DNA of 64,000 nucleotides from an uncultured Bdellovibrionales bacterium (lineage in GTDB: Bacteria; Patescibacteriota; Minisyncoccia; Moranbacterales; DUUL01), in the NCBI GenBank assembly GCA_964346295.1, contig CAYFUG010000001.1:20325-84324 (forward strand), given 5' to 3'. Position numbers and translations under genes: made by a program. Position 1 is the stretch's first letter. The number at the start of each line of letters is the position of its first letter. Below are positions 4,773 to 60,036 of the stretch, one piece after another. The notes under the pieces were generated by a model. That model was not told where the DNA came from. It made no database searches and was given only the letters and a program-made list of their open reading frames with translations.

Positions 4773-6287
4773 ATGCCTATCAAACCCAAAAAAGTCTCCG
4801 CTCATCAATTCGTACTGGAGCCCCCTCAAAAACCCAAAAAGGATGAACAGCAAGTCCCGGTCCAACTGAATGTTAGCGAAGATCTCCTACCCAACCAACC
4901 TACCTTGGAACAGCTAAAAAAAGTAGCCGCTGATCCTCATGCTTTCCAGCAAGTGGCCGCCTTGACAGATGTTCATCCCAAAAAGGGCCGCCGCAACCCC
5001 ACCGGCACCGCTGTTGCCACTCAAGGCGCCTTTCTACCTCAATTGGTCGATAGCGCTCCCAATTGCGGGATGCGGATGATTAAAACTCCCTTTGGCGAAG
5101 GCGATCTCACCAAAGATCAGCTTCACCGACTTTTTGAGGAGCTGGTGGAAGTCGTACCTACCAAGCGCTACATCGGCACTCCCCTGTCTCACAAGACTAT
5201 CTTAGATGTTTCTCGTCGGGGAGCCGCGGCCATCTTAGACTCTTACCGGAGAAAGGCTAATCAAGTCAATAATATTCAACAACAAGGCAATGCCTTCGAG
5301 GGGGAAAAGATCACTAACCAAGATCTTTTTGGCGCTATTCCTCGTCTCTTTTTTAGAATCGCTCAACTAAGGCTAGGAATCCTAGGGGCGGCTGGTAATC
5401 ACTTTTTAGACTTGATGAAGATTGAAGACATTCTGGACGAAAAAGTGGCCAACAAGTTTGACCTCAAAAAGGGTCAATATGTTTTTCTTTTGCACACCGG
5501 CAGCGGGATGTTCGGTCAGTACTGTAGTTATTTCTATATGCCCAAAAAGAAGGAGCACCTCAGTCAAAAGCTAATTACCGAAAGTGCTCGCTTTACTTTC
5601 TTGAATGATAAAATCGCCTGGCATCGACAACTAGAAGAGGAGCTTCCTTACTATCAAGACCAAGAAGAATTTTACGCTATCGACGAAAACAGTGAACTGG
5701 CTCGAAATTTTATGATTGCCCACCGCGCCGCCGCTAATCACGGAGTGGCTAACCGTACTTTACTGCAAATTCACATCGAAAACGCCATGGAGCGGGTCTT
5801 GAAAAAGAAATTAAAAAACCTGCCCTTGGTTTACGATATGACTCATATTTCTATTCGCAAAGAAAGACACTTCGAGAAAGATGTCTGGGTCCATCGCAAT
5901 GGCACTGTCCGAGCCTACGGACCAGAGCGAATGAAGGGCGCTAAACCCTACGAAGAGACCGGCGAGCCCATTTTTGCCCCCTCCTCCATGAGCACTCCCG
6001 CTTACTTAGGAGTAGGAACCGATGAAAATCAAGACACCTTTTTTAGCGCCTCCCACGGTACCGGCAAGTCTAAGGCTAAAACCTCGGAAGTCCCGGAAAG
6101 TAAATCTGCTCTCCATGCTAAAATGAAGGACCGCGGCATCCGGCTCTACAACGCTCAATCTCGGGGAATCTTAGAACAAGACGCCTCTCACTACAAGGAC
6201 ATTGAGGAAGGCATTGAGGGAATGCGAGAAAATAAAATTATGAAGCCGGTAGTCAAAATGAAACCGGTAGCGGTATTGATGTATTAG
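4773..6287 (+). CDS. rtcB: RtcB-family RNA 3'-phosphate/5'-OH ligase
   Basis: LTDVHPKKGRRNPTGTAVA (PDxHxG motif), NCGMRM (metal Cys), NFMIAHRAAANH, VHRNGTVRA (HRKGAT-like), SASHGTGKS (HGAGR-like nucleophile His region). Confidence 0.75.
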   Translation: MPIKPKKVSAHQFVLEPPQKPKKDEQQVPVQLNVSEDLLPNQPTLEQLKKVAADPHAFQQVAALTDVHPKKGRRNPTGTAVATQGAFLPQLVDSAPNCGMRMIKTPFGEGDLTKDQLHRLFEELVEVVPTKRYIGTPLSHKTILDVSRRGAAAILDSYRRKANQVNNIQQQGNAFEGEKITNQDLFGAIPRLFFRIAQLRLGILGAAGNHFLDLMKIEDILDEKVANKFDLKKGQYVFLLHTGSGMFGQYCSYFYMPKKKEHLSQKLITESARFTFLNDKIAWHRQLEEELPYYQDQEEFYAIDENSELARNFMIAHRAAANHGVANRTLLQIHIENAMERVLKKKLKNLPLVYDMTHISIRKERHFEKDVWVHRNGTVRAYGPERMKGAKPYEETGEPIFAPSSMSTPAYLGVGTDENQDTFFSASHGTGKSKAKTSEVPESKSALHAKMKDRGIRLYNAQSRGILEQDASHYKDIEEGIEGMRENKIMKPVVKMKPVAVLMY

Positions 6288-8864: not shown

Positions 8865-9166
8865 CTGGGGCTCATACCATCGTTAGTTAAATTCTATGCT
8901 TATTATAGGCTTAAATCAAAAACTTTGAGTAAGAGCCTACTTGAAAAATCCAAGGAAGAAAGATGCGAGCGAGAGAATATGAAATTGAAGATAATTCCTC
9001 TTGTCTGAGTAGTTTAGATTTTTATCTGCAATCTTGTGAATCCTTGGAGCAATATTTAGCTAAAGAATCAAGCTGCGAGTCAGGAATTATCTTCAATTTC
9101 ATATTCTGGAGCGAGATCATCAATTCCAAAATCATTATTGACTTCAAAAAAATCCTTTTTTCAATG

Positions 9167-9766: not shown

Positions 9767-9852
9767 CTCCCTACTCCTTCTAGTTCTTAGAGCCTGTTTC
9801 AAAAATCGCTTTCGCAATGAAATTTTTAAATTTTTAGCAAAAGATTAGTCCT

Positions 9853-9957
9853 TCAGATTTTGAGTGAATCTTAGAGGGCAACCGAGTATCAAAGCGAGCC
9901 GCGCTAAAAGAAAAATACTGCAAGTAAGACGCCAGGGCTTCGACAGCGAAATTCGCC
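9853..9957 (+). repeat. Probable degenerate copy G of the dispersed repeat
   Basis: gattttgagtgaatcttagagggcaaccgag...gcgagccgcgc...gacagcgaaattcgcc resembles copy B 5' and 3' modules. Confidence 0.35.
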
Positions 9958-9979
9958 AAAACATTAAGACTCCCAACCA

Positions 9980-19519: not shown

Positions 19520-19743
19520 TTTTTACTTTTTTATCTTCTTGCGCTTTGGTCTGGGTGGTTATTATTTAAGACCACTCCGGAAGAAGAGTTGTTTAGTTTT
19601 AGTTGGATAAATTAAATGGTAGGTTAATTTTAGCAAAAATTTTACTAGCAGGCAAGAGCTAAGAAAAAATCGGCCTTAAAAACAAAAACTATCCGCATAG
19701 ATTTTAAGCCCTGGACCTCCAATTTAACTAAAATAACCCTATT

Positions 19744-23498: not shown

Positions 23499-25625
23499 TC
23501 ACAACTTAAATTCTAACGAACCCAACATCTTCTCGAAGCTTTCCCAGTCAACCTTATCAGCCGGAGCCTTAGCGAAAAATGTTAGCTGGTAATTACCTAT
23601 AATTGTCCAGTACATAATGGTCTCCGGAGGATTTCTTTTAATAAACTCATTACTGCCCAAAACGATCTTTTCAAAGCCAGAATTCTCGCTCTGATTCTCA
23701 GTGAAAATCTCATAGAGCTTGTCAACCGATTTTTTTTCTTCTAATAATTTAACTCTAAACTCTACTATTTCAAAGCCATTAACAACAGAAAGATCGTCAG
23801 AAAGATCGTCGATTAAATAACGAGCGAAAGTTTTGCCTGGCTCCTGGGGGTAATTATTGATCCTTTTTATCAAATATCTTTTTTGCCCATCCATAAAGAC
23901 AAACTCATCATCCACTCCAAATTCTAGATCTCTTCTCCTTGAGTTGTAAGAGATGTCACCTCCCTGATTAACACTCTCATTAACCTCAGATAGCCCGATA
24001 CTCTCATCTTCGCCGCACTGTTCAATACTCATTTCCCTGGAATCAGGAGAGTCTTCTAAATAAACCTTTGGTATTTTTTTAGAATCTACTTCGGTAGGAT
24101 ATCTCTCAAGTATAAGCTCCTCATCAACAGACAATTTTTCCATGGTTTCTCCTCCTCCCATATTCCGAGATAAGCCTGTCTCGAGCTCTAAGAGCTTAGA
24201 AGGTCCACTACTGTAAGTCATAAATAGATACTTTTCGTCAATATTAAAAAGCGAATCCACTTCTGAAATGGGTCCCTTACTAGCCAATTGATAACTTTCC
24301 TTGGTTACCTGATCTAAGCTCTGCTTGATAATAAAATGATCTTTTCCTCTCATTACCAAATCATCTTCATTATCAATTTCAATTCCGTACTCCTCGGCCT
24401 TTACCGGACAATAAATCTCTTTTCCTATTAAAGCAAAACTCTTGCAAGGCGCCAAATTATCCAACTTAACTATCCTAGGACTACAAGAGTGAATATTTTC
24501 AGCCTTAAAAAATTTACTCCCTTTTTCTAGAATCGTAAAAATCAAAGTATCCTCATCTAGCAAGGCAAAGTTTTGATCTACTAGAATTGTATACTCACTA
24601 TTTTCCACTCCATCTATTTTATCCACAACCACTCTGCGACCTCCATTTTTAGGATCAAAAACCACTAAAACATCATGCTTAGAAGCCTCTGCCTCTTTTT
24701 GTTTATCAATAAAGCCATTAAACCTATAGCCACAAACGAAACTCGTCCCAGAAATATCCCATTTGCATAAGTCCGGACAAACCTTAATTCCGTCGAAAGT
24801 CTCCATAAAACAAAGCTCTGTCTTCTGAGATGGATTATCCACTGACAATAATTCTTCGCAATCACCATATCGACCATAATCCTCACAACTTACAAAGTAT
24901 TTTCCATTGGGAGAAATGTAACCAATGTTTTCTTTTCCAGAAGAAAACAATTTCTGCTTCTTGTTTCCATAAAGCCCACTTATCAAAATTTCCCCGCTCT
25001 CTTCATCCTCGCCCGGGTAAATAAAGCGGGCAACTGACTCCAAGGGCTTTTTAGTCTCATAAGCTTGCTGGAATTGAAGTCCTTGTTTAACTGCCGTTGT
25101 TCCAAGAAAAACAATCGCGATTATTATCAAAGCGACTAACGAAGCGGCAACCACAGAAGAAGACACTAGTACTCTTTTAAATTTTTTCTTATTCCTAGTA
25201 ATTAAGCCCCGCTTCTCCAAGATACTAACAACAACAAAAATAACCATGAGAGAACTCAAAAGAGGGAAAAAAGGAAAAAATAAAAATTCACCAGCAAAAG
25301 AAAACTTTAATCCGGTAACCAACATTACAAAGACAATCAGAGAATAAGGAATGCTTAAAACAAGAGCTTCCCACGGATCTTGGCCAAACATCAAAAAGTC
25401 AATAAATTTATAAATTAAAAAAACAGAAAAAGAGAGTGTCAGCAGCAAAACATAAATCAAAACAGTAAGCAAAATTCGCCCCTTTAAAGAGCTCTTCTCT
25501 GGGCTTTGTTGGGAACCTTCAGTTCTTGAACTGCTTTGACTAAGATTTTCTTTTTCTTCTTGCTCACTAAAATTTACTTGGTTTTCCATTTTTTTATTTT
25601 TTCCTGAATTTATAATAGCATTCAC
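23499..25625 (-). CDS. Membrane protein with large Cys-containing extracytoplasmic domain; paralog 1 of a tandem pair
   Basis: About 45% identity to neighbour across whole length; shared blocks FIYPG.EESG.IL.SG, ENIGYISPNGKYFVSC, VDWESFEKMLGSLE. Confidence 0.6.
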   Translation of the reverse strand: MNAIINSGKNKKMENQVNFSEQEEKENLSQSSSRTEGSQQSPEKSSLKGRILLTVLIYVLLLTLSFSVFLIYKFIDFLMFGQDPWEALVLSIPYSLIVFVMLVTGLKFSFAGEFLFFPFFPLLSSLMVIFVVVSILEKRGLITRNKKKFKRVLVSSSVVAASLVALIIIAIVFLGTTAVKQGLQFQQAYETKKPLESVARFIYPGEDEESGEILISGLYGNKKQKLFSSGKENIGYISPNGKYFVSCEDYGRYGDCEELLSVDNPSQKTELCFMETFDGIKVCPDLCKWDISGTSFVCGYRFNGFIDKQKEAEASKHDVLVVFDPKNGGRRVVVDKIDGVENSEYTILVDQNFALLDEDTLIFTILEKGSKFFKAENIHSCSPRIVKLDNLAPCKSFALIGKEIYCPVKAEEYGIEIDNEDDLVMRGKDHFIIKQSLDQVTKESYQLASKGPISEVDSLFNIDEKYLFMTYSSGPSKLLELETGLSRNMGGGETMEKLSVDEELILERYPTEVDSKKIPKVYLEDSPDSREMSIEQCGEDESIGLSEVNESVNQGGDISYNSRRRDLEFGVDDEFVFMDGQKRYLIKRINNYPQEPGKTFARYLIDDLSDDLSVVNGFEIVEFRVKLLEEKKSVDKLYEIFTENQSENSGFEKIVLGSNEFIKRNPPETIMYWTIIGNYQLTFFAKAPADKVDWESFEKMLGSLEFKL

Positions 25626-25627
25626 AA

Positions 25628-27658
25628 TTAACGCTTTATCTCCAGCGAACCCAGCATTTTCTCGAAACTCTCCCAGTCCACCTTGTTGGATGGGTGCTTA
25701 ATCAAAAAACTAACTTGATATTTACCTGTTCTAATCAAATAAAAGGAAGTGTCTCTCTTAACATACTCATTGCCACCCAAAGTCAACTTACTATAATCAA
25801 AGTCAGTCCCATCTTCTTGTTGCTTGTTCAGCAAGTATCGGTAAAACTCCTCCGTGGAAGATTCCTCTTCTAAAAGATTAACTCTAACCTCTGCCATCTC
25901 AAAACCATTCACCACTGCCAGATCTTCAATTTGATAGAAGGCCAAAAACTCTTGATTCGCTCCTTGTTTTTTAAAAAGCCTTTTTATCGAATACCTCTCT
26001 TGACCATCCAAAAAAATCAACCCGTCATCCACTCCAAACTTCAGATCTTCCGGGCCAGAAGCCTGGGGATCGCTCGCCTCTCTTTCCGAGTTATAAGGGA
26101 TGTTCTCTCCTTGGTTAATGCCCTCATCAAGTTCGGACGAACCGGCATTCCTACCTTCCCTGCACTGTTCAATTTTTAGCCCCCTGGAATCAGAAGAGCT
26201 CTTTAAATAAGGTCGAGGAGTTTTCTTTTTATCCTCACTATTCTTAAATATAATCCCCTCATCCTCTTCCATGTAATCCTCCTCCCATTCAAATCCTCCT
26301 CCCAGATCCCTTACTAAACCACTCTCCGTTTCTATTATCTTGTAAGATCCTCCGTAGCGAGAAAGAGCGAAAATATACTTACCATCAACGCCAACAAGAA
26401 CCTCTGTCTCTGGGATTGGTGCCTTATTGATAACTTCAAAATCTTCTCTAGAGGCCTGATTCAAGCTTTGCCTAATAATAAAATGCTCGTAGCCCTTCAC
26501 TTCAAAATTATCCTCGTCGTTAATCTCAATTCCCTGCTCTTCGGCTCTCACAACACAATAAATGCCCTCTCTTTCCAACACAAAACTCTCGCAGTCAGCC
26601 AAATTTTCCAATTCCGTTACCTTGGGCCTACAAGAGTAAATGTCATCTAATTTCAAAAAACCTCCCATTGCCTTATTAATAATCAGAGAATCTTCGTCCA
26701 AAAAATCAAACCCCTTCACCTCGCCTGCAATACCAGCTCTCCCAAGGATTTCTATTTGCCTTCCCGTTTTAGGGTTGAATAAAAGTAACCCGTTTTTAAT
26801 ACTGCAAACTAAACTATTACTACCAGAGTCCCAGTCACAAAACTGGGGACATTTTTCAGTTTCACCGGAAGCTCCTTTTTGGCATAAATCAATTTTCTTA
26901 GAAGGATCCTCAGCTACATGCAATCCTTGACAATCCCCATACCTTCCATGGCCCTCATCACAACTTACAAAATATTTTCCGTTAGGAGAAATATAGCCGA
27001 TATTTTCTTCTCCGGAAGAAAATAACTTCTCTTTACTCTCTTCATAGATTCCACTTACCAAAATATCCCCACTCTCCTCGTTTACTCCAGGATAGATAAA
27101 GCGACTTTCAGATTCCACCGGCTCTCTGGTTTCGTAAGTTTCCTGGTAATAATCCTTCTCTTGCGATATGCCGAAAGACTGATTAAACTGAATAATCTTA
27201 TCAAAAATAAACACTACCGCACATAAAAAAAGCGGCACTGCCAAAATCCTATTAAATCTTTCCCGATTTTTAGTTATAATATGCGACTGCTCTAAAACGC
27301 TAACAATAAAAAAGATCATTGCCAGAGCTCCCAGTAGAAAAGCAAAAGGAAACAAATCAAAAATCGCCGCCCCTCCCCCAAATATCGGAACCACTCCTAG
27401 AACACCAATTAAAAAGACAGTTTGGACTATCTCACCAAAATCAGTCCGGAGCAAACCCCTATCCGGATCAAAATTAGCGAAAGCAAAAAGATATAAAACA
27501 ACTACAGCCAAGCAAAACAACGATACATATATTGCTATCGTCATCAATAACTTCCCTACAAAATCAAACTTCTTCTCTCTTGGTTGATTCCCCAATTGAA
27601 AAGAAGCAGGTTCTTTTTGCCCTTCTTCTTGATCACTAAAATTTACTTGGTTTTTCAT
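25628..27658 (-). CDS. Membrane protein with large Cys-containing extracytoplasmic domain; paralog 2 of the tandem pair
   Basis: See paralog 1; identical N-terminal MxNQVNFS(E/D)QEE. Confidence 0.6.
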   Translation of the reverse strand: MKNQVNFSDQEEGQKEPASFQLGNQPREKKFDFVGKLLMTIAIYVSLFCLAVVVLYLFAFANFDPDRGLLRTDFGEIVQTVFLIGVLGVVPIFGGGAAIFDLFPFAFLLGALAMIFFIVSVLEQSHIITKNRERFNRILAVPLFLCAVVFIFDKIIQFNQSFGISQEKDYYQETYETREPVESESRFIYPGVNEESGDILVSGIYEESKEKLFSSGEENIGYISPNGKYFVSCDEGHGRYGDCQGLHVAEDPSKKIDLCQKGASGETEKCPQFCDWDSGSNSLVCSIKNGLLLFNPKTGRQIEILGRAGIAGEVKGFDFLDEDSLIINKAMGGFLKLDDIYSCRPKVTELENLADCESFVLEREGIYCVVRAEEQGIEINDEDNFEVKGYEHFIIRQSLNQASREDFEVINKAPIPETEVLVGVDGKYIFALSRYGGSYKIIETESGLVRDLGGGFEWEEDYMEEDEGIIFKNSEDKKKTPRPYLKSSSDSRGLKIEQCREGRNAGSSELDEGINQGENIPYNSEREASDPQASGPEDLKFGVDDGLIFLDGQERYSIKRLFKKQGANQEFLAFYQIEDLAVVNGFEMAEVRVNLLEEESSTEEFYRYLLNKQQEDGTDFDYSKLTLGGNEYVKRDTSFYLIRTGKYQVSFLIKHPSNKVDWESFEKMLGSLEIKR

Positions 27659-27738: not shown

Positions 27739-27782
27739 TGTTTAAATTTGACACCAAAATTTTCAAAATTTGAAAGCCTCAC
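27739..27782 (+). repeat. Partial copy (3' module) of the dispersed intergenic repeat, just downstream of the hydA stop
   Basis: gacaccaaaattttcaaaatttgaaagcctc versus copy F taacaccaaaattttcaaaataggaaagtcc. Confidence 0.5.
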
Positions 27783-39244: not shown

Positions 39245-39805
39245 TTAATCCCGGGCATAAACCACATCCAAAATAGCGTACTCGGAACCTACCGGTGTCA
39301 ATCTAGATTCTATCAACACCAGCGTCTTAACCTCTTCCCACCAGTCAATTGTCTCTCGGTAACTCCTTGAATAAGGAACCCTCACTTTGCCCAAAGTCAT
39401 GTGCGGCTTCGGTGGTCGCGCCTCTCGGAAATTAAAAATTTCTTCAATTTGTTGTCTCAGTTTCCTCAGGTCTTCATTAAAAGCCGCTCTAGACCAAATC
39501 ACCTGAGGAGGCCGCCTCCGAACTGTTTCAATTTTCCTAAAATTTATCCAAAAACTTCTAAGATTAATTCTTCTCAGGCCTTTTTTCGCCTCCTCTTCTT
39601 CTGCAACTTGCCCCGGAGGAAGCAAGGTGACATGCAAATTTTGACTAGGGGTCCAACGCACATCACTAAAGTCATCCTGGTGCTGCTTACGCCAGTTGCC
39701 AATCGTCTTTCGTAAAGACCAAGAGGCGGGAATAGCAATAAATAAGCGCTTTTTCATTTTTTGAATAATCTTCCCCTCTTTTAAATACCTTATTAATGCC
39801 AGCAA
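39245..39805 (-). CDS. thpR: 2H-phosphoesterase RNA 2',3'-cyclic phosphodiesterase / 2'-5' RNA ligase
   Basis: Two HxT motifs: LHVTLLPPG and PHMTLGKV. Confidence 0.8.
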   Translation of the reverse strand: MLALIRYLKEGKIIQKMKKRLFIAIPASWSLRKTIGNWRKQHQDDFSDVRWTPSQNLHVTLLPPGQVAEEEEAKKGLRRINLRSFWINFRKIETVRRRPPQVIWSRAAFNEDLRKLRQQIEEIFNFREARPPKPHMTLGKVRVPYSRSYRETIDWWEEVKTLVLIESRLTPVGSEYAILDVVYARD

Positions 39806-42415: not shown

Positions 42416-42588
42416 GCAGCTTCGCTAGCCAAGGCGAGCAATCTAGCTAAAAATTTCCCTGGTCTCTAAATGACTGTTGCAATCCTAATTGTAACTTTCT
42501 CAACAATCAAAGTCCAGCGGAAATTTTTGGTTTTTTAAAAAATAGCTTCCGACGCCTCAAGCTATAAAATTTTAGCAACCAAAACTAA

Positions 42589-42706
42589 GAATTGCGAATT
42601 TGAGGAAATTTCTAGGCAAAGTCGAGGCTTTGCGTGAGCCGTACTGAAAGGTACGGTGAATGCGAAACACAGACTTTAACAACGAAATTTCCCAAAAGCG
42701 CAATTC
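42589..42706 (+). repeat. Dispersed intergenic repeat, copy A (between DUF5320 and DUF134 genes)
   Basis: TIR gaattgcg/cgcaattc; core tctaggc...gaggcttt...ccgtactgaaaggtacggtgaa...aacaacgaaatttccc. Confidence 0.7.
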
Positions 42707-42718
42707 TCTCGCAAAACC

Positions 42719-43649: not shown

Positions 43650-43801
43650 AAAACTTCCAAATTTGAGTGAAGCTCTAGGCGACGCCGAGGCTTTGGCTGA
43701 CCTGTCCCATTTAGCTTTAGCGGTGCGGGAGCCGTACTGTTTGGTACGGTGAAGACAAAACGCAGGCGGCAACAACGAAATTTACCGGATTTGGAAGTTT
43801 T
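43650..43801 (+). repeat. Dispersed intergenic repeat, copy B
   Basis: TIR aaaacttccaaat/atttggaagtttt; core aatttgagtgaagctctaggc...gccgtactgtttggtacggtgaa...aacaacgaaatttacc. Confidence 0.7.
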
Positions 43802-43804
43802 AAG

Positions 43805-44839: not shown

Positions 44840-44986
44840 AGAGAGATTTTTAGATTGAATTTTCTACAGCTCCCATTCTAATAGAAATGGTAACAAAAAG
44901 CAAAAGTAGGGGTGAAATATATTCCACCCCTACTTATAATGTAATCAATAAAAAGGAAGGCCGTGACCAGTCTCCTCCATAATAGT

Positions 44987-45580: not shown

Positions 45581-45715
45581 GGCTTTGGTTGTTATCCAAA
45601 AGATTATTCTGCACTAAATGTCAAGGCAATTTCAACACTTTCTACTCTTCCTAAATTATAACATTTTTAATGAAAAAAGTCAAGGAAAAACAGTCTCTAG
45701 CAACCGAAATCAAGG

Positions 45716-45830
45716 CTTTCTCGCTTTAGAAAAGTTCTAGGCGCGACTGAGCACCGAAGCGAGGCGTACTGAGAGATACGGCGAACGAGGCGTGGAAGTC
45801 GCAACAACAAAATTTTCAAAGCGAGGAAGT
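45716..45830 (+). repeat. Dispersed intergenic repeat, copy C (abuts tyrS stop)
   Basis: ttctaggcgcg...gcgtactgagagatacggcgaa...gcaacaacaaaattttcaaagcgaggaagtcc. Confidence 0.65.
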
Positions 45831-45831
45831 C

Positions 45832-47040
45832 CTAAAACTCCAGTTTCCGATAATTCCGCTTGCCCACCTTCAAAATCCTACCTTGCCAATCAGCGCTAAC
45901 TTCCACGCTTGGATCCTTCAAATCTTTACCCGCTAATTTCACTCCGCCTTGCTTAATCAGCCGCTTGGCTTCACTTTTACTAGGCGCTAATTGGCTAGAG
46001 GCTAACAGTTCCACTAGGCTGGTTCCAGCCTTAACTTTGAGCTCCTCAATTTCTTCCGGGGCCTCTTTTTTCTGGACCGTCCGTTCAAAATGAGCCTGGG
46101 CCTGTTCTGCCGCCTGTTGACTTTGGTTAATTTTGACGACTTCAAAAGCCAAGCGTTTTTTAGCTTCCATTGGCTCCAACTGAATAATCTGCTCAATTTC
46201 TGACTGAGGAATTTGCGTGCACAGCTCCAAAGCCCGCTCGATTACGCCGTCATCCCAGCTCATCACCCGGCCAAACATGTCTTCTGGCGCCTGATCCAAA
46301 AATACTGCGTTGCCCTCGCTCTTACCCATTTTTTTACCCTGATCATCCGCCAAAAGCTTGAGAGTCATTACAAACTTTTCTTTGTTCTTCAGGCTCCTTA
46401 ATAAATCTCGCCCGCACATCATATTGAACATCTGGTCGTTGCCGCCCACTTCCAAGTCCACATCCATCGCCACGCTGTCGTAGCCCTGCACTAAGGGGTA
46501 GAGAAATTCGTGCAAATAAATCGGCTTATCACTCTGGAGACGCTGTTGAAACATCTCTCGCGCCAACATCTGCTGCACCGTAAAATTAGAAGCGAGTTCG
46601 ATCACTTCTTTAAAGCTCAGTTTGTCATTCCACTCGCTATTGTGCTTAACTTGAGCCGGATTGTCGCCGGCAAAATCTAAATAACCGCTCGCTTGAGCCT
46701 GGTAACTCTTGCTGTTAGCCAAAACTTCTTCTCTGGTGAGCTTTTTGCGGACTGATTCTTTGTCGGTGGGATCGCCGATCATGCCGGTAAAATCGCCTAT
46801 CAAAAAAATCACTTCGTGGCCTAATTTTTGAAACTGGGCCAATTTGTTAATCTGAATGGCGTTTCCGATATGCAAAGAAGCGGCCGTGGGATCAAAGCCG
46901 CAGTAAAGTCGCAGCCGCTCACCCTTCAGTAGCTTCTTTTTTAAAGTCTCTTTATCAGGATAGATCTGCTCTACCCCGCGAGTTAATAATTCTTCAATCT
47001 GAGCTTCCTCAGTGATAGTTTTCGCCATAGTAAACAACAT
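45832..47040 (-). CDS. tyrS: Tyrosyl-tRNA synthetase with C-terminal S4 domain
   Basis: HIGN (SLHIGNAIQ), KMSKS (KKMGKSEGN). Confidence 0.95.
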   Translation of the reverse strand: MLFTMAKTITEEAQIEELLTRGVEQIYPDKETLKKKLLKGERLRLYCGFDPTAASLHIGNAIQINKLAQFQKLGHEVIFLIGDFTGMIGDPTDKESVRKKLTREEVLANSKSYQAQASGYLDFAGDNPAQVKHNSEWNDKLSFKEVIELASNFTVQQMLAREMFQQRLQSDKPIYLHEFLYPLVQGYDSVAMDVDLEVGGNDQMFNMMCGRDLLRSLKNKEKFVMTLKLLADDQGKKMGKSEGNAVFLDQAPEDMFGRVMSWDDGVIERALELCTQIPQSEIEQIIQLEPMEAKKRLAFEVVKINQSQQAAEQAQAHFERTVQKKEAPEEIEELKVKAGTSLVELLASSQLAPSKSEAKRLIKQGGVKLAGKDLKDPSVEVSADWQGRILKVGKRNYRKLEF

Positions 47041-47987: not shown

Positions 47988-48156
47988 AAGCCTGCCTGCC
48001 GGCAAGGCAGGGGGGTCAGAGGAGGTTGAGAAGGCAACCTACGGGGAGAAGTGGCCACATTACCAAGGCATTCCCAGTTTTTGATTTTTTAAAGTTTCAA
48101 TTTTAAGCCTCTATTCTTATTCAAGGCTTTCAAATTTTCAAAATTTGGAAGTCTCT
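47988..48156 (+). repeat. Dispersed intergenic repeat, copy D (variant with 20-bp GC palindrome and different central hairpin)
   Basis: cctgcctgccggcaaggcagggg; 3' module ggctttcaaattttcaaaatttggaagtctc. Confidence 0.55.
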
Positions 48157-53880: not shown

Positions 53881-54075
53881 TCATTTCTTGATTTGCTCCT
53901 TAACAACTTTCTCAAAATCATCAACAGATTCATTTAATTTTTCGAAAGAACACTTCAATCTATAGCTTACACTTGATGATATTGCCAGAGAAATATTCCC
54001 GGGACCTCTTGTAACGATATCTCTAATTATCTTCTTATCCTCTTCTTTCAGATCTTTCATGAATTCTTCTTTCAA
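53881..54075 (-). CDS. Hypothetical 64-aa protein between CIRCE/repeat E and dnaK
   Basis: ORF only. Confidence 0.35.
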   Translation of the reverse strand: MKEEFMKDLKEEDKKIIRDIVTRGPGNISLAISSSVSYRLKCSFEKLNESVDDFEKVVKEQIKK

Positions 54076-54103: not shown

Positions 54104-54247
54104 TAGGGCTTTCAAACTTCAGGAAATTTTTACCTGCCTGCCGGCAGGCAGGGGCGCAAGCGAGGCTTGGTGCGAGTCGTACTGAAAGGTACGATGAGCG
54201 AGTAGCGGAGAGTTTAACAACAAAATTTTCAAAATTTGGGAGTCCCT
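54104..54247 (+). repeat. Dispersed intergenic repeat, copy E (lies between CIRCE operator and the 64-aa gene/dnaK)
   Basis: cctgcctgccggcaggcagg palindrome; tcgtactgaaaggtacga hairpin; gagcgagtagcggagagtttaacaacaaaattttcaaaatttgggagtccc. Confidence 0.75.
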
Positions 54248-54259
54248 CTTAATAAAAAA

Positions 54260-54286
54260 TTAGCAGTCTAGGTAGTAGACTGCTAA
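54260..54286. promoter_or_regulatory. CIRCE-like HrcA operator upstream of the 64-aa gene/dnaK
   Basis: TTAGCAGTC-N9-GACTGCTAA perfect inverted repeat (consensus TTAGCACTC-N9-GAGTGCTAA). Confidence 0.7.
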
Positions 54287-54439
54287 AATTATAGCGCATT
54301 CTTGAATTGTGTCAAATCTACAACCTTAGACCAAAAAGAGGCAGGGAAAACCACCTCTTTAAGGTCTGATTGAAATCAACTAAGGCTACTTATCTAGCAC
54401 CAGAAAATCGGATCACTGAAAAACCGGACGACCCGATAG

Positions 54440-55002: not shown

Positions 55003-55344
55003 CTATTTTAGAGAATGGAAGATTTTGCTAAAAATCATAGTTAATTCTCGAGATTCTTTCCATAGTGTCCTTAATTCAGATCTCTTGTCCTTCTCAACTT
55101 CTGCTAACATTTCTAGCCAGTATTCAGTTTCACTAATTTCTTTTCTGCAGATGCTAATTTTATTACGGAAATCTTTTTTAGAACAACCAGCATTAGCTTC
55201 TTTATAGTTAGCTCCAACACTTAGGGCTGATCTAATAAGTTGGTCAACAATGTTTCTGTTTAGGTGGCTTAGCTGAACAGCTCTCACAAGGCTTAAAATG
55301 CTTCTTCCAAATTTCTTAGTTCTTTCTTCTAAGTCATATTTCAT
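55003..55344 (-). CDS. Four-helix-bundle protein (23S rRNA intervening-sequence protein family)
   Basis: RSALSVGANYKEANAGCSKKDFRNKISICRKEISETEYWLEM matches family core. Confidence 0.6.
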   Translation of the reverse strand: MKYDLEERTKKFGRSILSLVRAVQLSHLNRNIVDQLIRSALSVGANYKEANAGCSKKDFRNKISICRKEISETEYWLEMLAEVEKDKRSELRTLWKESRELTMIFSKIFHSLK

Positions 55345-55441: not shown

Positions 55442-56794
55442 TCAGCCGGCTTCCACGCTCACCGCCCTTATCACCTTTCCATTCAAGCGATAGCCCTTCT
55501 TTAAAATCTTGCCTACTTGATCGCCTTTCCCGGCCACTACTTCGTGAATATTAGAATCAATAGCGTCTCCTGGTTGAGTAGCAATCTCTTCTACTCCTCG
55601 TTCTTCTAGTGTTTTTAGGAGTTGATTTTTAATGTGCATAATTCCTGTTACCCAAGGATTGTCTTGCTGATCCTCCGGCACAAAAGCCACTGAGGCCTCA
55701 AAGTTATCCACCACCGGCAGCAGTCCCAAAATCAAATCTTCCGTGGCGTACTTGCGAAATTCTTCTTTTTCCTTTTCTGCTCGTTTACGAAAATTATCCA
55801 GTTCCGCCGCCGCTCTTTTCCAGCTATTCTCTGAATCCAAAAGCTCCAGCGTTCGAGCAGCCTCCTTGAGAGCCTTAAACAAATGAATCTCCATAAAATT
55901 ATCAGCAGCCGGTTTGCCAATTTTTTCTAAAGCCTCTTTAAAGCTGAGCCACTCTAGGCTTTGGTGCTCATTTTCATCAACTCGAGCCAATTCAGGATTG
56001 CCCGTAAAAACCAGATAGTAAGGAGTTTTATAGCCATAAAATCCGTTCCACTGATCAGCGGTGATATCAGGAACATAAATGACTGGGCCTATCTCGATAC
56101 CACTCAAACCCGCTTCCTCCTCGACCTCCCTCTTGACCGCATCCTCTAAAAACTCTCCAGCGCCCAAAGATCCGCCCGGAATATCGTAACTACCCGGATA
56201 AAACAAGTCGCTATCGGAGCGCTTTAACAACAAGACTCGATTTTGATTATCCACCACCACTGCTCGCACTCCTACTCGAAAAAACTTTTGGTCCTTCATT
56301 CGCCGAGCTGCACCAATCAAAGTCTCCCTCTTCTCATTCTCAAAGCCATTTTTTTTATTTAAAAGGTTAATGGCTTCTTCTAAGTTCAACCACTGAAATT
56401 CACTATGCTCTCGCTTGTTCAACTTGACTTTCTGAGGATTCTGACCTTCTTTTAAAAATGTCAAATAGCGCAAACCTCTTTTTTCGTCTTGAAATTGCCG
56501 GCTCTCTTTGGGAAACTCGCTAACTTTAATCACCGTGTCTAATTTTACTTCCAGGCCGGTTTCTTCTCGCACTTCTCTTTTCACTGCCTCCTCCACCGAT
56601 TCTCCTTCATCTACATGGCCACCCGGCAAATCCCATTTTTCGGCGTTCCAAGGAACTTTTTTAGAGCGCTTCAATAGCAGCACTTGCTCATTCTCTCGAT
56701 CTACTATCACTGCCTTGACTGTTAAAGACATCGGACGAGAAAATCGATCTGCTTGCATTTGTTGTTGAGTTTTATCGGAATCTTTTTTCAGCAT
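55442..56794 (-). CDS. grpE: Fusion protein: two tandem Nudix hydrolase domains followed by a GrpE nucleotide-exchange-factor domain
   Basis: Nudix boxes GGHVDEGESVEEAVKREVREETGLEV and GGSLGAGEFLEDAVKREVEEEAGL; C-terminus AAELDNFRKRAEKE...AIDSNIHEVVA...GYRLNGKVIRAVSVEAG (GrpE); single uninterrupted 450-codon frame. Confidence 0.85.
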   Translation of the reverse strand: MLKKDSDKTQQQMQADRFSRPMSLTVKAVIVDRENEQVLLLKRSKKVPWNAEKWDLPGGHVDEGESVEEAVKREVREETGLEVKLDTVIKVSEFPKESRQFQDEKRGLRYLTFLKEGQNPQKVKLNKREHSEFQWLNLEEAINLLNKKNGFENEKRETLIGAARRMKDQKFFRVGVRAVVVDNQNRVLLLKRSDSDLFYPGSYDIPGGSLGAGEFLEDAVKREVEEEAGLSGIEIGPVIYVPDITADQWNGFYGYKTPYYLVFTGNPELARVDENEHQSLEWLSFKEALEKIGKPAADNFMEIHLFKALKEAARTLELLDSENSWKRAAAELDNFRKRAEKEKEEFRKYATEDLILGLLPVVDNFEASVAFVPEDQQDNPWVTGIMHIKNQLLKTLEERGVEEIATQPGDAIDSNIHEVVAGKGDQVGKILKKGYRLNGKVIRAVSVEAG

Positions 56795-59906: not shown

Positions 59907-60027
59907 GGGACTTGCATATTTTAGGAAATTTTTAGGCAAACTCGAGCAGCGAGCGAAGTGTACTGAAAGGTACGGTGAGCGAGTAGCGGAGAGTTTAACA
60001 CCAAAATTTTCAAAATAGGAAAGTCCC
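59907..60027 (+). repeat. Dispersed intergenic repeat, copy F (ends 9 nt before the TasA-like gene ATG)
   Basis: TIR gggactt/aagtccc; gtgtactgaaaggtacggtgagcgagtagcggagagtttaacaccaaaattttcaaaataggaaagtcccc; about 90% identical to copy E over the 3' 60 nt. Confidence 0.75.
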
Positions 60028-60036
60028 CACACCTTA

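Follow-up and report, generated by a model that had tools for sequence, protein, structure and literature searches.

Rickettsia palindromic elements (RPEs) are inserted in frame in housekeeping genes, where the extra peptide is tolerated, and have no known transposase, and the Correia elements of Neisseria and the enterobacterial repetitive intergenic consensus (ERIC) elements alter mRNA processing and expression (PMC10969869). The present analysis concerns a family of short palindromic repeats dispersed along 64,000 nt of contig CAYFUG010000001.1 (positions 20,325–84,324, referred to here as the window) from an uncultured bacterium of the Patescibacteria. Genomes of this group, also called the Candidate Phyla Radiation (CPR), are considered streamlined and poor in mobile DNA; in the present one, a single element family fills a large share of the intergenic space over a 70-kb stretch. 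The repeat represents a real, previously undescribed element family with very strong covariation, and nothing comparable was found in the literature on repeat elements of CPR bacteria and Parcubacteria. With a probability of roughly two in three, it is a non-autonomous mobile palindromic element akin to MITEs (miniature transposable elements with inverted repeats) and RPEs, a new family of this type for which mobilization is probably single-strand-based.

An unbiased repeat search of the window identified a 75-nt core in five copies, on the forward (+) strand throughout (family D1), and a covariance model (CM), R1, was then built from the five full copies. These score 101–129 bits with R1, and their own reverse complements score no more than 36 bits. 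A broader model built later (R2) reproduced six full copies and gave zero on the reverse strand. The source contig carries six full and three decayed copies within ∼72 kb, five of the full ones inside the window. Each copy is 122–153 nt long and contains no open reading frame (ORF), and the copies are dispersed, as for the non-coding, multi-copy MITEs; the element itself encodes no protein, and its typical size in Parcubacteria is ∼123 nt. An initial annotation of the window had described a dispersed, structured family of the MITE or repetitive extragenic palindromic (REP) type, all copies pointing the same way. Both statements hold: five copies were recovered in place by the repeat search and the CM, and every oriented copy on the contig is on the + strand.

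In every copy, one strand (+ in the window) folds by minimum free energy (MFE) into a single long imperfect hairpin, a rod of roughly 123 nt. The base of the rod is formed by a closing helix, followed by a GGAAAUUUC/GAAAUUUCC helix and by a conserved asymmetric internal loop, in which 5′-(C/A)UAGGC faces 5′-AACA(A/C)C. Beyond this loop lie an inner helix and a conserved CGUAC-loop-GUACG tip. The internal loop and the tip are the most conserved parts of the element. The closing and inner stems are variable, the sequence of the closing helix being free provided that pairing holds, and the termini are the least conserved and change by compensation, though they still show the consensus AGG(G/A)CTTTC...GGAAGTCCC. 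The closing helix measures 15–25 bp in every copy and could pass for the terminal inverted repeats of a MITE, yet the entire element is palindromic. Terminal inverted repeats had been reported as private to each copy; they are present but not private, since they correspond to this closing helix, which is homologous between copies and kept by compensatory changes. Folded as RNA, copy A has an MFE of −56.1 kcal/mol (z −10.5).

The fold is strongly supported by covariation. In an RNAalifold analysis of five copies, a check that had been proposed at the outset, 20 of the 44 pairs show double compensatory changes, and the covariation first noted in the hairpin (ccgtac/gtacgg in A, tcgtac/gtacga in E) is confirmed in columns 102–104 with 119–121. 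An alignment of 20 distinct members was fitted to the model, and independent MFE folds agree with it. In this alignment, 88.7% of cells are paired, compared with 59% in column shuffles and 36%–44% with slid partners; double changes are found in 35 of the 44 pairs, and none of 500 shuffles attains the observed covariation score. Pairing is also asymmetric between the strands. There are 71 G·U pairs and 17 A·C pairs; when the two conserved pairs of the tip are left out, the numbers become 44 and 17 (p = 7e-4). The model strand is more stable than its complement in 18 of 20 copies. The excess is seen both in copies sense (18 vs 5) and in copies antisense (18 vs 8) to the neighboring gene, indicating that the asymmetry belongs to the element and not to host transcription. 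The strand-dependent host function proposed earlier is not supported. Because the G·U excess opposes the local mutational skew, it would reflect selection on pairing of the model strand rather than mutation bias. With DNA folding parameters the rod is unchanged, and the asymmetry between the strands runs the same way.

Comparison with catalogued RNAs and with other hairpins did not identify the element. Rfam 15 gives zero matches in the window at gathering thresholds, and at permissive E values (up to 1–5) only a chance miRNA-like hairpin match overlaps the element loci; no tRNA or tmRNA was found in a scan of the 64-kb window. Intrinsic termination was rejected, since no copy is called by a terminator scan and the flanks have no T-runs and no U-tract. 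A canonical intrinsic terminator is present elsewhere in the window (44904–44935, − strand; a 14-bp stem plus TTGCTTTTTG, downstream of a 197-aa gene), which indicates that U-tract terminators of the ordinary kind are in use in this organism and that the repeat copies differ from them. Weak Rfam matches at this position (rli61, L20 leader) are apparently chance hairpin matches. Integron attC sites were discarded because R′/R″ core sites are missing and the conserved motifs are unpaired and internal, domain V of group II introns because the AGC triad is not kept across copies, and mimicry of 16S helix 45, the substrate of KsgA, because its defining bases are not conserved across copies and the tip loop varies.

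Evidence for mobility comes from the distribution of copies between related genomes. No copy was found in 54 kb around tyrS from three related Parcubacteria (TyrS 65%–67% identical), compared with about 10 in 72 kb of the source contig, and at one of these related loci the tyrS–pheS gap is 86 nt. A direct comparison of filled and empty sites is provided by two contigs, L012 and L035, from the GC-rich marine group discussed below. At their orthologous Fer4/AMP-ligase junction, where flanking DNA is 82%–85% identical, L012 is filled and L035 is empty. The empty site has the Fer4-protein and AMP-ligase genes 6 nt apart, reading TAG-GCGACC-ATGACTTCGTCGGAGTCC-TTCTGG.... In L012, a 178-nt element lies within the first codons of the acyl-CoA-ligase-like (AMP-ligase) gene. 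Reading from the original ATG continues across the element and stops at its terminal TAG, and the gene must restart at an ATG inside the 3′ arm of the element, in frame with TTCTGGTTGGAC. An ATG is present in the 3′ arm in only two of six Acidobacteriota copies, which makes the replacement start codon of L012 fortuitous. Conversely, three further copies in L035, 84%–87% identical to that of L012, occupy sites that lack a copy in L012. As for MITEs, orthologous sites are thus polymorphic for presence or absence, both in the L012/L035 pair and at the three Parcubacteria loci. The genes next to copies, assigned by Pfam, are functionally unrelated and include those for tRNA synthetases, heat-shock proteins, a hydrogenase, a flippase, and a peptidase.

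These properties would also be expected of a classical cut-and-paste MITE, that is, a deletion derivative of an insertion sequence (IS) with a DDE transposase, whose terminal inverted repeats the transposase would recognize in double-stranded form. The repeat is short and non-coding, is present in many mostly intergenic copies, has inverted-repeat ends with a consensus, and is polymorphic in presence. The insertion sites argue otherwise. Direct repeats flanking the element average 1.0 nt over 18 copies and 1.06 nt in a cross-copy control, none reaches 4 nt, and no duplication is seen at the L012/L035 filled/empty pair either. The target-site duplications (TSDs) for which the initial annotation had suggested looking are therefore lacking, and the classical definition of a MITE does not apply. 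Moreover, a conserved loop and tip combined with variable termini is the reverse of what is expected for a transposase that binds the termini, and the strand-asymmetric pairing also speaks against such a mechanism. No parent IS was found in the window annotation and no split or autonomous copy in the ∼400 kb examined; Pfam and gene annotation of the 64-kb window also revealed no transposase, integrase, reverse transcriptase, or HUH gene. Classical cut-and-paste transposition is considered distinctly unlikely.

The position of the copies relative to genes is one-sided. The 3′ end lies within 10 nt of the next ORF boundary in eight of the ten copies on the source contig (P = 1.8e-8 for uniform placement), and in none of the ten is the 5′ end equally near one. 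Three copies end just before a same-strand start codon: copy A (42587–42709, +, full, 129 bits with R1), between the DUF5320 and DUF134 genes, ends 9 nt before the DUF134 ATG; copy F (59907–60028, +, full, 121 bits) leaves 8 nt to the ATG of the gene for a secreted Peptidase_M73-like protein; and copy G (9846–9973, +, degenerate) leaves 6 nt to that of a polysaccharide flippase gene. Five end at an opposite-strand stop codon: copy B (43650–43802, +, full with a 30-nt internal insertion, 101 bits) 2 nt from that of pheS; copy C (45712–45834, +, full, 117 bits) touching that of tyrS, at 0 nt; the derivative D (48123–48156, +) 4 nt from that of a formyltransferase gene; a 3′-half remnant (27739–27782, +) 5 nt from that of an Fe-hydrogenase gene; and copy I, the sixth full copy, on the same 97.6-kb contig ∼7 kb outside the window (L024 19760–19902, +, 109 bits), also at 5 nt. 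The boundary calls are canonical, DUF134 starting with MPRPRK and the Pfam match of PheS extending to the last residue. Copy E (54105–54247, +, full, 105 bits) occupies the dnaK operon leader in antisense orientation, at a distance of 13 nt from a palindrome resembling the controlling inverted repeat of chaperone expression (CIRCE). The placement at gene boundaries described at first for A, C, E, and F is in agreement with these positions.

The tendency recurs in other genomes, where the 3′ gaps are −3 and −6 nt (L016), 1 nt (L018), 14 nt (L017), 21 nt (L012), and 22 nt (L021), and the insertion of L012 inside the first codons is consistent with the tendency of the 3′ end to adjoin a boundary. 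Usual host signals are found in the long 5′ spacers. The 5′ flanks were inspected for a concealed conserved module and for a promoter of the element, and both ideas were dismissed: the flanks share no module, and the spacer left of copy C holds the strong − strand promoter of the next gene (45683–45655). Comparison of flanks revealed no target motif and no conserved tetra- or pentanucleotide beside either end. Insertion might be targeted to ORF boundaries on the 3′ side of the element, or copies might survive only there.

Proximity to start and stop codons could instead reflect a cis-acting RNA module that serves the host, for instance by stabilizing or terminating the 3′ end of mRNA, by offering a site to RNase III, or by regulating how translation starts, and that is copied because it is useful. 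Strong covariation, the use of G·U pairs, a hairpin base within the ribosome footprint of start or stop codons in eight of ten copies, the nucleotide-level conservation of the ksgA insert described below, and the known effects of Correia and ERIC elements on mRNA processing (PMC10969869) are all in keeping with it. Against it, copies sense to the neighboring gene (A, F, G, L012, L017, L021, and ksgA) are about as frequent as antisense ones (B, C, D, E, I, L018, and L016, after rpsL and rpsG), so that about half would be transcribed as the less stable antisense form, and the strand asymmetry is independent of host gene direction. In addition, no U-tract follows the hairpin in an organism that has canonical terminators (44935–44904), the neighboring genes are unrelated, related genomes with the same genes lack the element (tyrS–pheS 86 nt apart), and the element also occurs inside coding sequence. 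A host-serving module is accordingly thought quite improbable. The stem had been taken to be under selection, and the covariation is indeed genuine; a service to the host by each copy does not follow from it, the copies being polymorphic, absent from relatives, and found in both orientations with respect to transcription. The covariation would mainly record selection on the lineage of still-mobile copies rather than service at each locus, which calls for caution more generally, as selection on mobility, not host function, can yield strong RNA-like covariation.

Co-orientation extends beyond the source contig, where the six full copies, G, D, and the remnant are all on the + strand, to the other multi-copy loci (two of two copies in L005, two of two in L016, and three of three in L035). 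The structured strand coincides with the C-rich host strand at each of the four multi-copy loci, and in the window it is also opposite to most genes, which by the usual rules would make it the leading-strand template. The initial annotation had suggested a tie to replication. The four co-oriented loci on the C-rich strand fit this suggestion; the GC skew of single-copy loci, which is mixed (nine negative and six positive), and the L012 copy, which is opposite to the L035 copies relative to the shared gene, do not. With these exceptions, a replication-linked orientation bias is plausible but unproven.

Oriented neighbors bring to mind the HUH/Y1 transposition systems. IS200/IS605 insertions are oriented relative to replication, and elements of the IS608 type have their active strand on the lagging-strand template. 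The present repeat might derive from such a system, either as a palindrome-associated element of the IS200/IS605 family or as a REP-like element with its REP-associated tyrosine transposase (RAYT). The missing TSD, ends without conserved sequence, a strand-specific fold, and co-oriented neighboring copies in four loci, as for IS200/IS605, would all be accommodated. The architecture would not: there is a single rod of 123 nt, whose internal loop is conserved, in place of two subterminal hairpins or a 20–40-nt REP with a 5′ GTAG, and neither end has a conserved tetra- or pentanucleotide. Furthermore, no Y1 transposase gene is present in the 64-kb window or in the other annotated loci, and the structured strand would be on the leading-strand template, opposite to IS608-type elements. 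Descent from a known HUH/Y1 system is therefore judged unlikely.

The window organism is assigned by its TyrS homologs to Parcubacteria/Patescibacteria, and a second metagenome contains it at 100% identity. The repeat is not a peculiarity of this small genome. Other genomes were searched with pattern scans, in which the conserved motifs were forced, and then with the CM, and the core was found in another Parcubacteria metagenome-assembled genome (MAG), in ksgA of Kaiserbacteria, and in marine Acidobacteriota. The pattern scan of genome contigs returned six loci, only one of which is true, the Parcubacteria MAG locus L005 with two copies of 79 and 57 bits. About a dozen metagenome contigs of 41%–58% GC also carry the element. 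Copies detected by the model alone (L005 888–1012 and L016 2025–2150) share the architecture despite the lack of motif forcing. The contig L013 is from Kaiserbacteria, and the GC-rich marine contigs are assigned to Acidobacteriota because the nearest named homologs of a neighboring gene are from Acidobacteriota (82% and 61% identity). In marine Acidobacteriota, the core is embedded in a longer palindrome of 178–200 nt. Copies in L011, L023, and L035 (three) have an extra outermost stem, GGCCGCTCAA...AAAAGCGGCC, which the L012 copy does not; either these copies form a subfamily of greater length, or the element was inserted into a terminator-like hairpin that is itself conserved. The family spans two phyla, Patescibacteria and Acidobacteriota.

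In Kaiserbacteria, the element resides within a coding sequence. In L013, it interrupts ksgA in frame and reads in the sense direction, and residues 8–96 and 139–295 of the protein align to contiguous parts of the solved KsgA structure 6ifx. This leaves an insert of 41–42 aa immediately ahead of the N-(L/I)-P-Y motif. Many Kaiserbacteria orthologs have an insert at this position; it is missing in the closest relatives of the L013 protein (67%–70% identical) and in a member of the other clade. Four further orthologous ksgA loci with the insert all fold as a rod (z −2.8 to −8.9), and the ksgA inserts score 44–65 bits with a model built without them. The 14 aligned insert-bearing orthologs stay in frame, with length differences in multiples of three (−1, +1, +3, and +18 aa), and ksgA is the only host gene found with an in-frame copy, most copies being intergenic. 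In L029, a further 54-nt in-frame insertion is present at the equivalent loop position. The Kaiserbacteria ksgA loci of L028–L031 are syntenic, with uvrD upstream and a type IV secretion-like cluster (PrgI/TraC-like/TraG-like) downstream. In the source contig, a DUF8128/DUF87/TrwB-like ATPase gene adjoins copy I (L024 from 19908).

The AlphaFold2 predicted local distance difference test (pLDDT) score exceeds 90 for the enzyme core and is 32–36 for the insert, which is predicted to be a disordered surface loop. Amino acid identity of the insert is also lower than that of the flanks (55% vs 63%), and together with the high nucleotide conservation of the insert given below, this indicates that the peptide is a tolerated passenger. 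Alternatively, the ksgA copy could be an intervening sequence that is removed or skipped at the RNA level, as a mini-intron or by translational bypass, and is never translated. A stable sense-strand hairpin conserved in nucleotides and not in peptide, together with the low pLDDT, would suit such a sequence, and genes for the RNA-ligase proteins RtcB and LigT are present in the window genome. The open frame and the multiple-of-three length differences in the 14 orthologs contradict it, although ascertainment favors intact ORFs. Intergenic copies have stops in the frame in question (copy A, read directly), and the maintenance of the frame in ksgA therefore indicates selection for translatability. 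No ribozyme family matches in Rfam. Removal or bypass at the RNA level thus appears very remote.

The interpretation preferred here, that of a non-autonomous palindromic element, would operate as follows. The conserved loop and tip would form the recognition site for an enzyme supplied in trans, and the element would move as a folded single strand, of DNA or, less likely, of RNA. Movement as a single strand would explain why the arms are conserved in pairing and not in sequence, why G·U or G·T wobble is tolerated on one strand whatever the direction of host transcription, and why target duplications are absent and neighboring copies share an orientation. More tentatively, and on the unlikely side, the loop and tip may be the handle of an unrecognized, widespread single-strand mobilization system, polar at ORF boundaries, producing no target duplication, and present in at least two phyla, with the ksgA copy domesticated under nucleotide-level selection for some role of its RNA or DNA structure at that site. 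If true, prokaryotic mobile elements would gain a new mechanistic class, one copy of which has been domesticated in a ribosome-biogenesis gene.

Several observations, among them the mixed skew of single-copy loci, weigh against a mobile palindromic element moving as a single strand. Nucleotide identity of the ksgA insert is 64%–80%, compared with 57%–65% for the flanking ksgA coding sequence, and is higher in 10 of 10 pairs; identity at synonymous codons is 76% in the insert and 40% in the flanks. The nucleic acid in ksgA has either been constrained in place or spread to the site after the hosts diverged. Its conservation could indicate an in-place function rather than selfish persistence, and domestication of this copy is conceivable. 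A mobilizing enzyme or autonomous parent was not found in the examined sequences or in plasmid, phage, and viral collections, where BLAST of plasmids and phages and a pattern scan of viral contigs gave no match to the element. No insertion was caught between near-identical strains, L024 and L025 being 100% identical; strain polymorphism upstream of copy F, hinted at by differing gene calls, was excluded on the same ground, the DNA being 100% identical. The link between Parcubacteria and Acidobacteriota is based in part on loci picked by a pattern that forced the motifs, and folding cannot separate single-stranded DNA from RNA.

The decayed and composite copies show further variation. D is a 34-nt derivative that retains only the closing stem, with its interior deleted. 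Its sequence is AAGGCTTTCAAATTTT-C-AAAATTTGGAAGTCTCT, and in the CM alignment it occupies model positions 1–16 and 108–123 with ∼90 positions skipped. A longer copy D, from 47988 to 48156, had been described at first; only 48123–48156 belongs to the family, and the remainder (47988–48122) holds an unrelated GC palindrome. The description of copy G as degenerate is accurate, as it scores 26 bits with R1 (E ∼1e-4) and falls below threshold with R2, and the 3′ remnant at 27739–27782 likewise matches the 3′ end of copy F (repeat families D5 and D9). Copy E contains a nested 20-nt GC palindrome, CCTGCCTGCCGGCAGGCAGG (54133–54152), inserted between UA and GGC of its internal loop, and an identical palindrome is present at the same spot in copy I (L024 19788–19807). 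The 30-nt insertion of copy B is located elsewhere. Free-standing copies of the GC palindrome are found at 47991–48011, in the 5′ flank of D, and at L024 ∼19680–19705, in the 5′ flank of I, and the palindrome, CCTGCCTGCCGGCA(A)GGCAGG, constitutes a second mini-repeat family. The internal loop of the element appears to be a hot spot for nested insertion. A further rod, H (8973–9109), is a single-copy inverted repeat (I4) of 137 nt with 26-bp perfect arms. It is situated upstream of tmk, 53 nt before the true start; the Tmk Pfam match begins at ORF residue 73. Its orientation is ambiguous, with CM scores of 24–27 bits on both strands, and its architecture is similar but without the conserved loop and tip. 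H may be part of a related family or of a young, different palindromic element family.

Other features of the window were noted. The dnaK operon promoter (54254–54330, − strand) is a perfect sigma-70-type TTGACA-17-TATAAT followed directly by the CIRCE-like palindrome, TTAGCAGTC-N9-GACTGCTAA (54261–54287, read from 54287 to 54261). After it come antisense copy E, a 64-aa ORF (53881–54075), and dnaK, an order that places a 143-nt rod in the heat-shock leader. Within the hrcA-grpE-hsp20-dnaK cluster lies a gene for a 23S-rRNA-intervening-sequence protein (55003–55344), and grpE (55442–56794, − strand) encodes a 450-aa protein with two NUDIX domains fused ahead of GrpE (Pfam). The adjacent 708- and 676-aa genes at 23499–25625 and 25628–27658 (− strand) have no Pfam match and are tandem paralogs, with 74%–90% nucleotide identity in several segments (D2, D7, D11, and D12). 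An RtcB RNA ligase and a LigT/2H phosphoesterase are encoded at 4773–6287 and 39245–39805. P0199, a TyrS homolog of the Parcubacteria type, has a 57-aa insert in its catalytic domain with CxxC...CxxC spacing, which is zinc-ribbon-like and unrelated to the repeat. Long TyrS homologs were considered as further in-frame insertions and rejected, one having the zinc-ribbon insert and one a mis-called N-terminal extension.

A whole lineage carries the element in its conserved ksgA, and in an Acidobacteriota gene the element supplies a replacement start codon. This raises the question of which enzyme recognizes a structure-defined, sequence-variable rod across such different bacteria, and further questions concern the one-sided insertion within 10 nt of ORF boundaries and the constancy of synonymous sites in a ksgA insert that is apparently a passenger. 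In practical terms, populations of these uncultured organisms can be followed with the CM as a marker.

Among described systems, RPEs are comparable in being single long hairpins of 100–150 nt, in a reduced-genome, host-dependent bacterium, with both intergenic insertions and in-frame insertions in housekeeping genes. The likeness is one of functional class and not of sequence family, the host phylum being a different one, and it includes the open, in-frame insertion in a housekeeping gene, here ksgA. In contrast to RPEs, the present copies are mostly intergenic, with one host gene affected, and occur in Patescibacteria and Acidobacteriota rather than in one genus, and the ksgA copy does not deteriorate but is better conserved in nucleotides than its host gene. 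The similarity to Correia and ERIC elements lies in their being imperfect palindromes of ∼100–150 bp near gene starts and ends that are co-transcribed with their neighbors. They have conserved terminal repeats and a TA target duplication, whereas the element described here has no TSD, its termini vary with compensation, and its internal parts are conserved. To our knowledge, polar adjacency of the 3′ end to ORF boundaries is not a described property of either.

Palindrome-associated elements of the IS200/IS605 type and REP/RAYT systems resemble the family in being strand-specific, structure-dependent, free of TSDs, and co-oriented along a chromosome stretch. The single rod without a shared junction motif differs from the two hairpins and fixed motif of IS200/IS605, and a 123-nt element with no GTAG-type flanking tetranucleotide, and no Y1 transposase in the window, differs from REPs and bacterial interspersed mosaic elements. 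Integron attC sites, such as the Vibrio cholerae repeats, likewise follow gene ends as imperfect palindromes of ∼120 nt in a locked orientation, and in them structure rather than sequence is conserved and one strand is active. In the present family, by contrast, RYYYAAC/GTTRRRY core sites are missing at the stem base, UAGGC and AACAAC face each other and cannot pair, the neighbors are housekeeping genes in both orientations at irregular spacing, and no integrase is found in the window. Small palindromic mobile repeats are thus a known category, and what is unusual here is the breadth across two phyla, the polar relation to ORF boundaries, and the nucleotide-constrained copy in ksgA.

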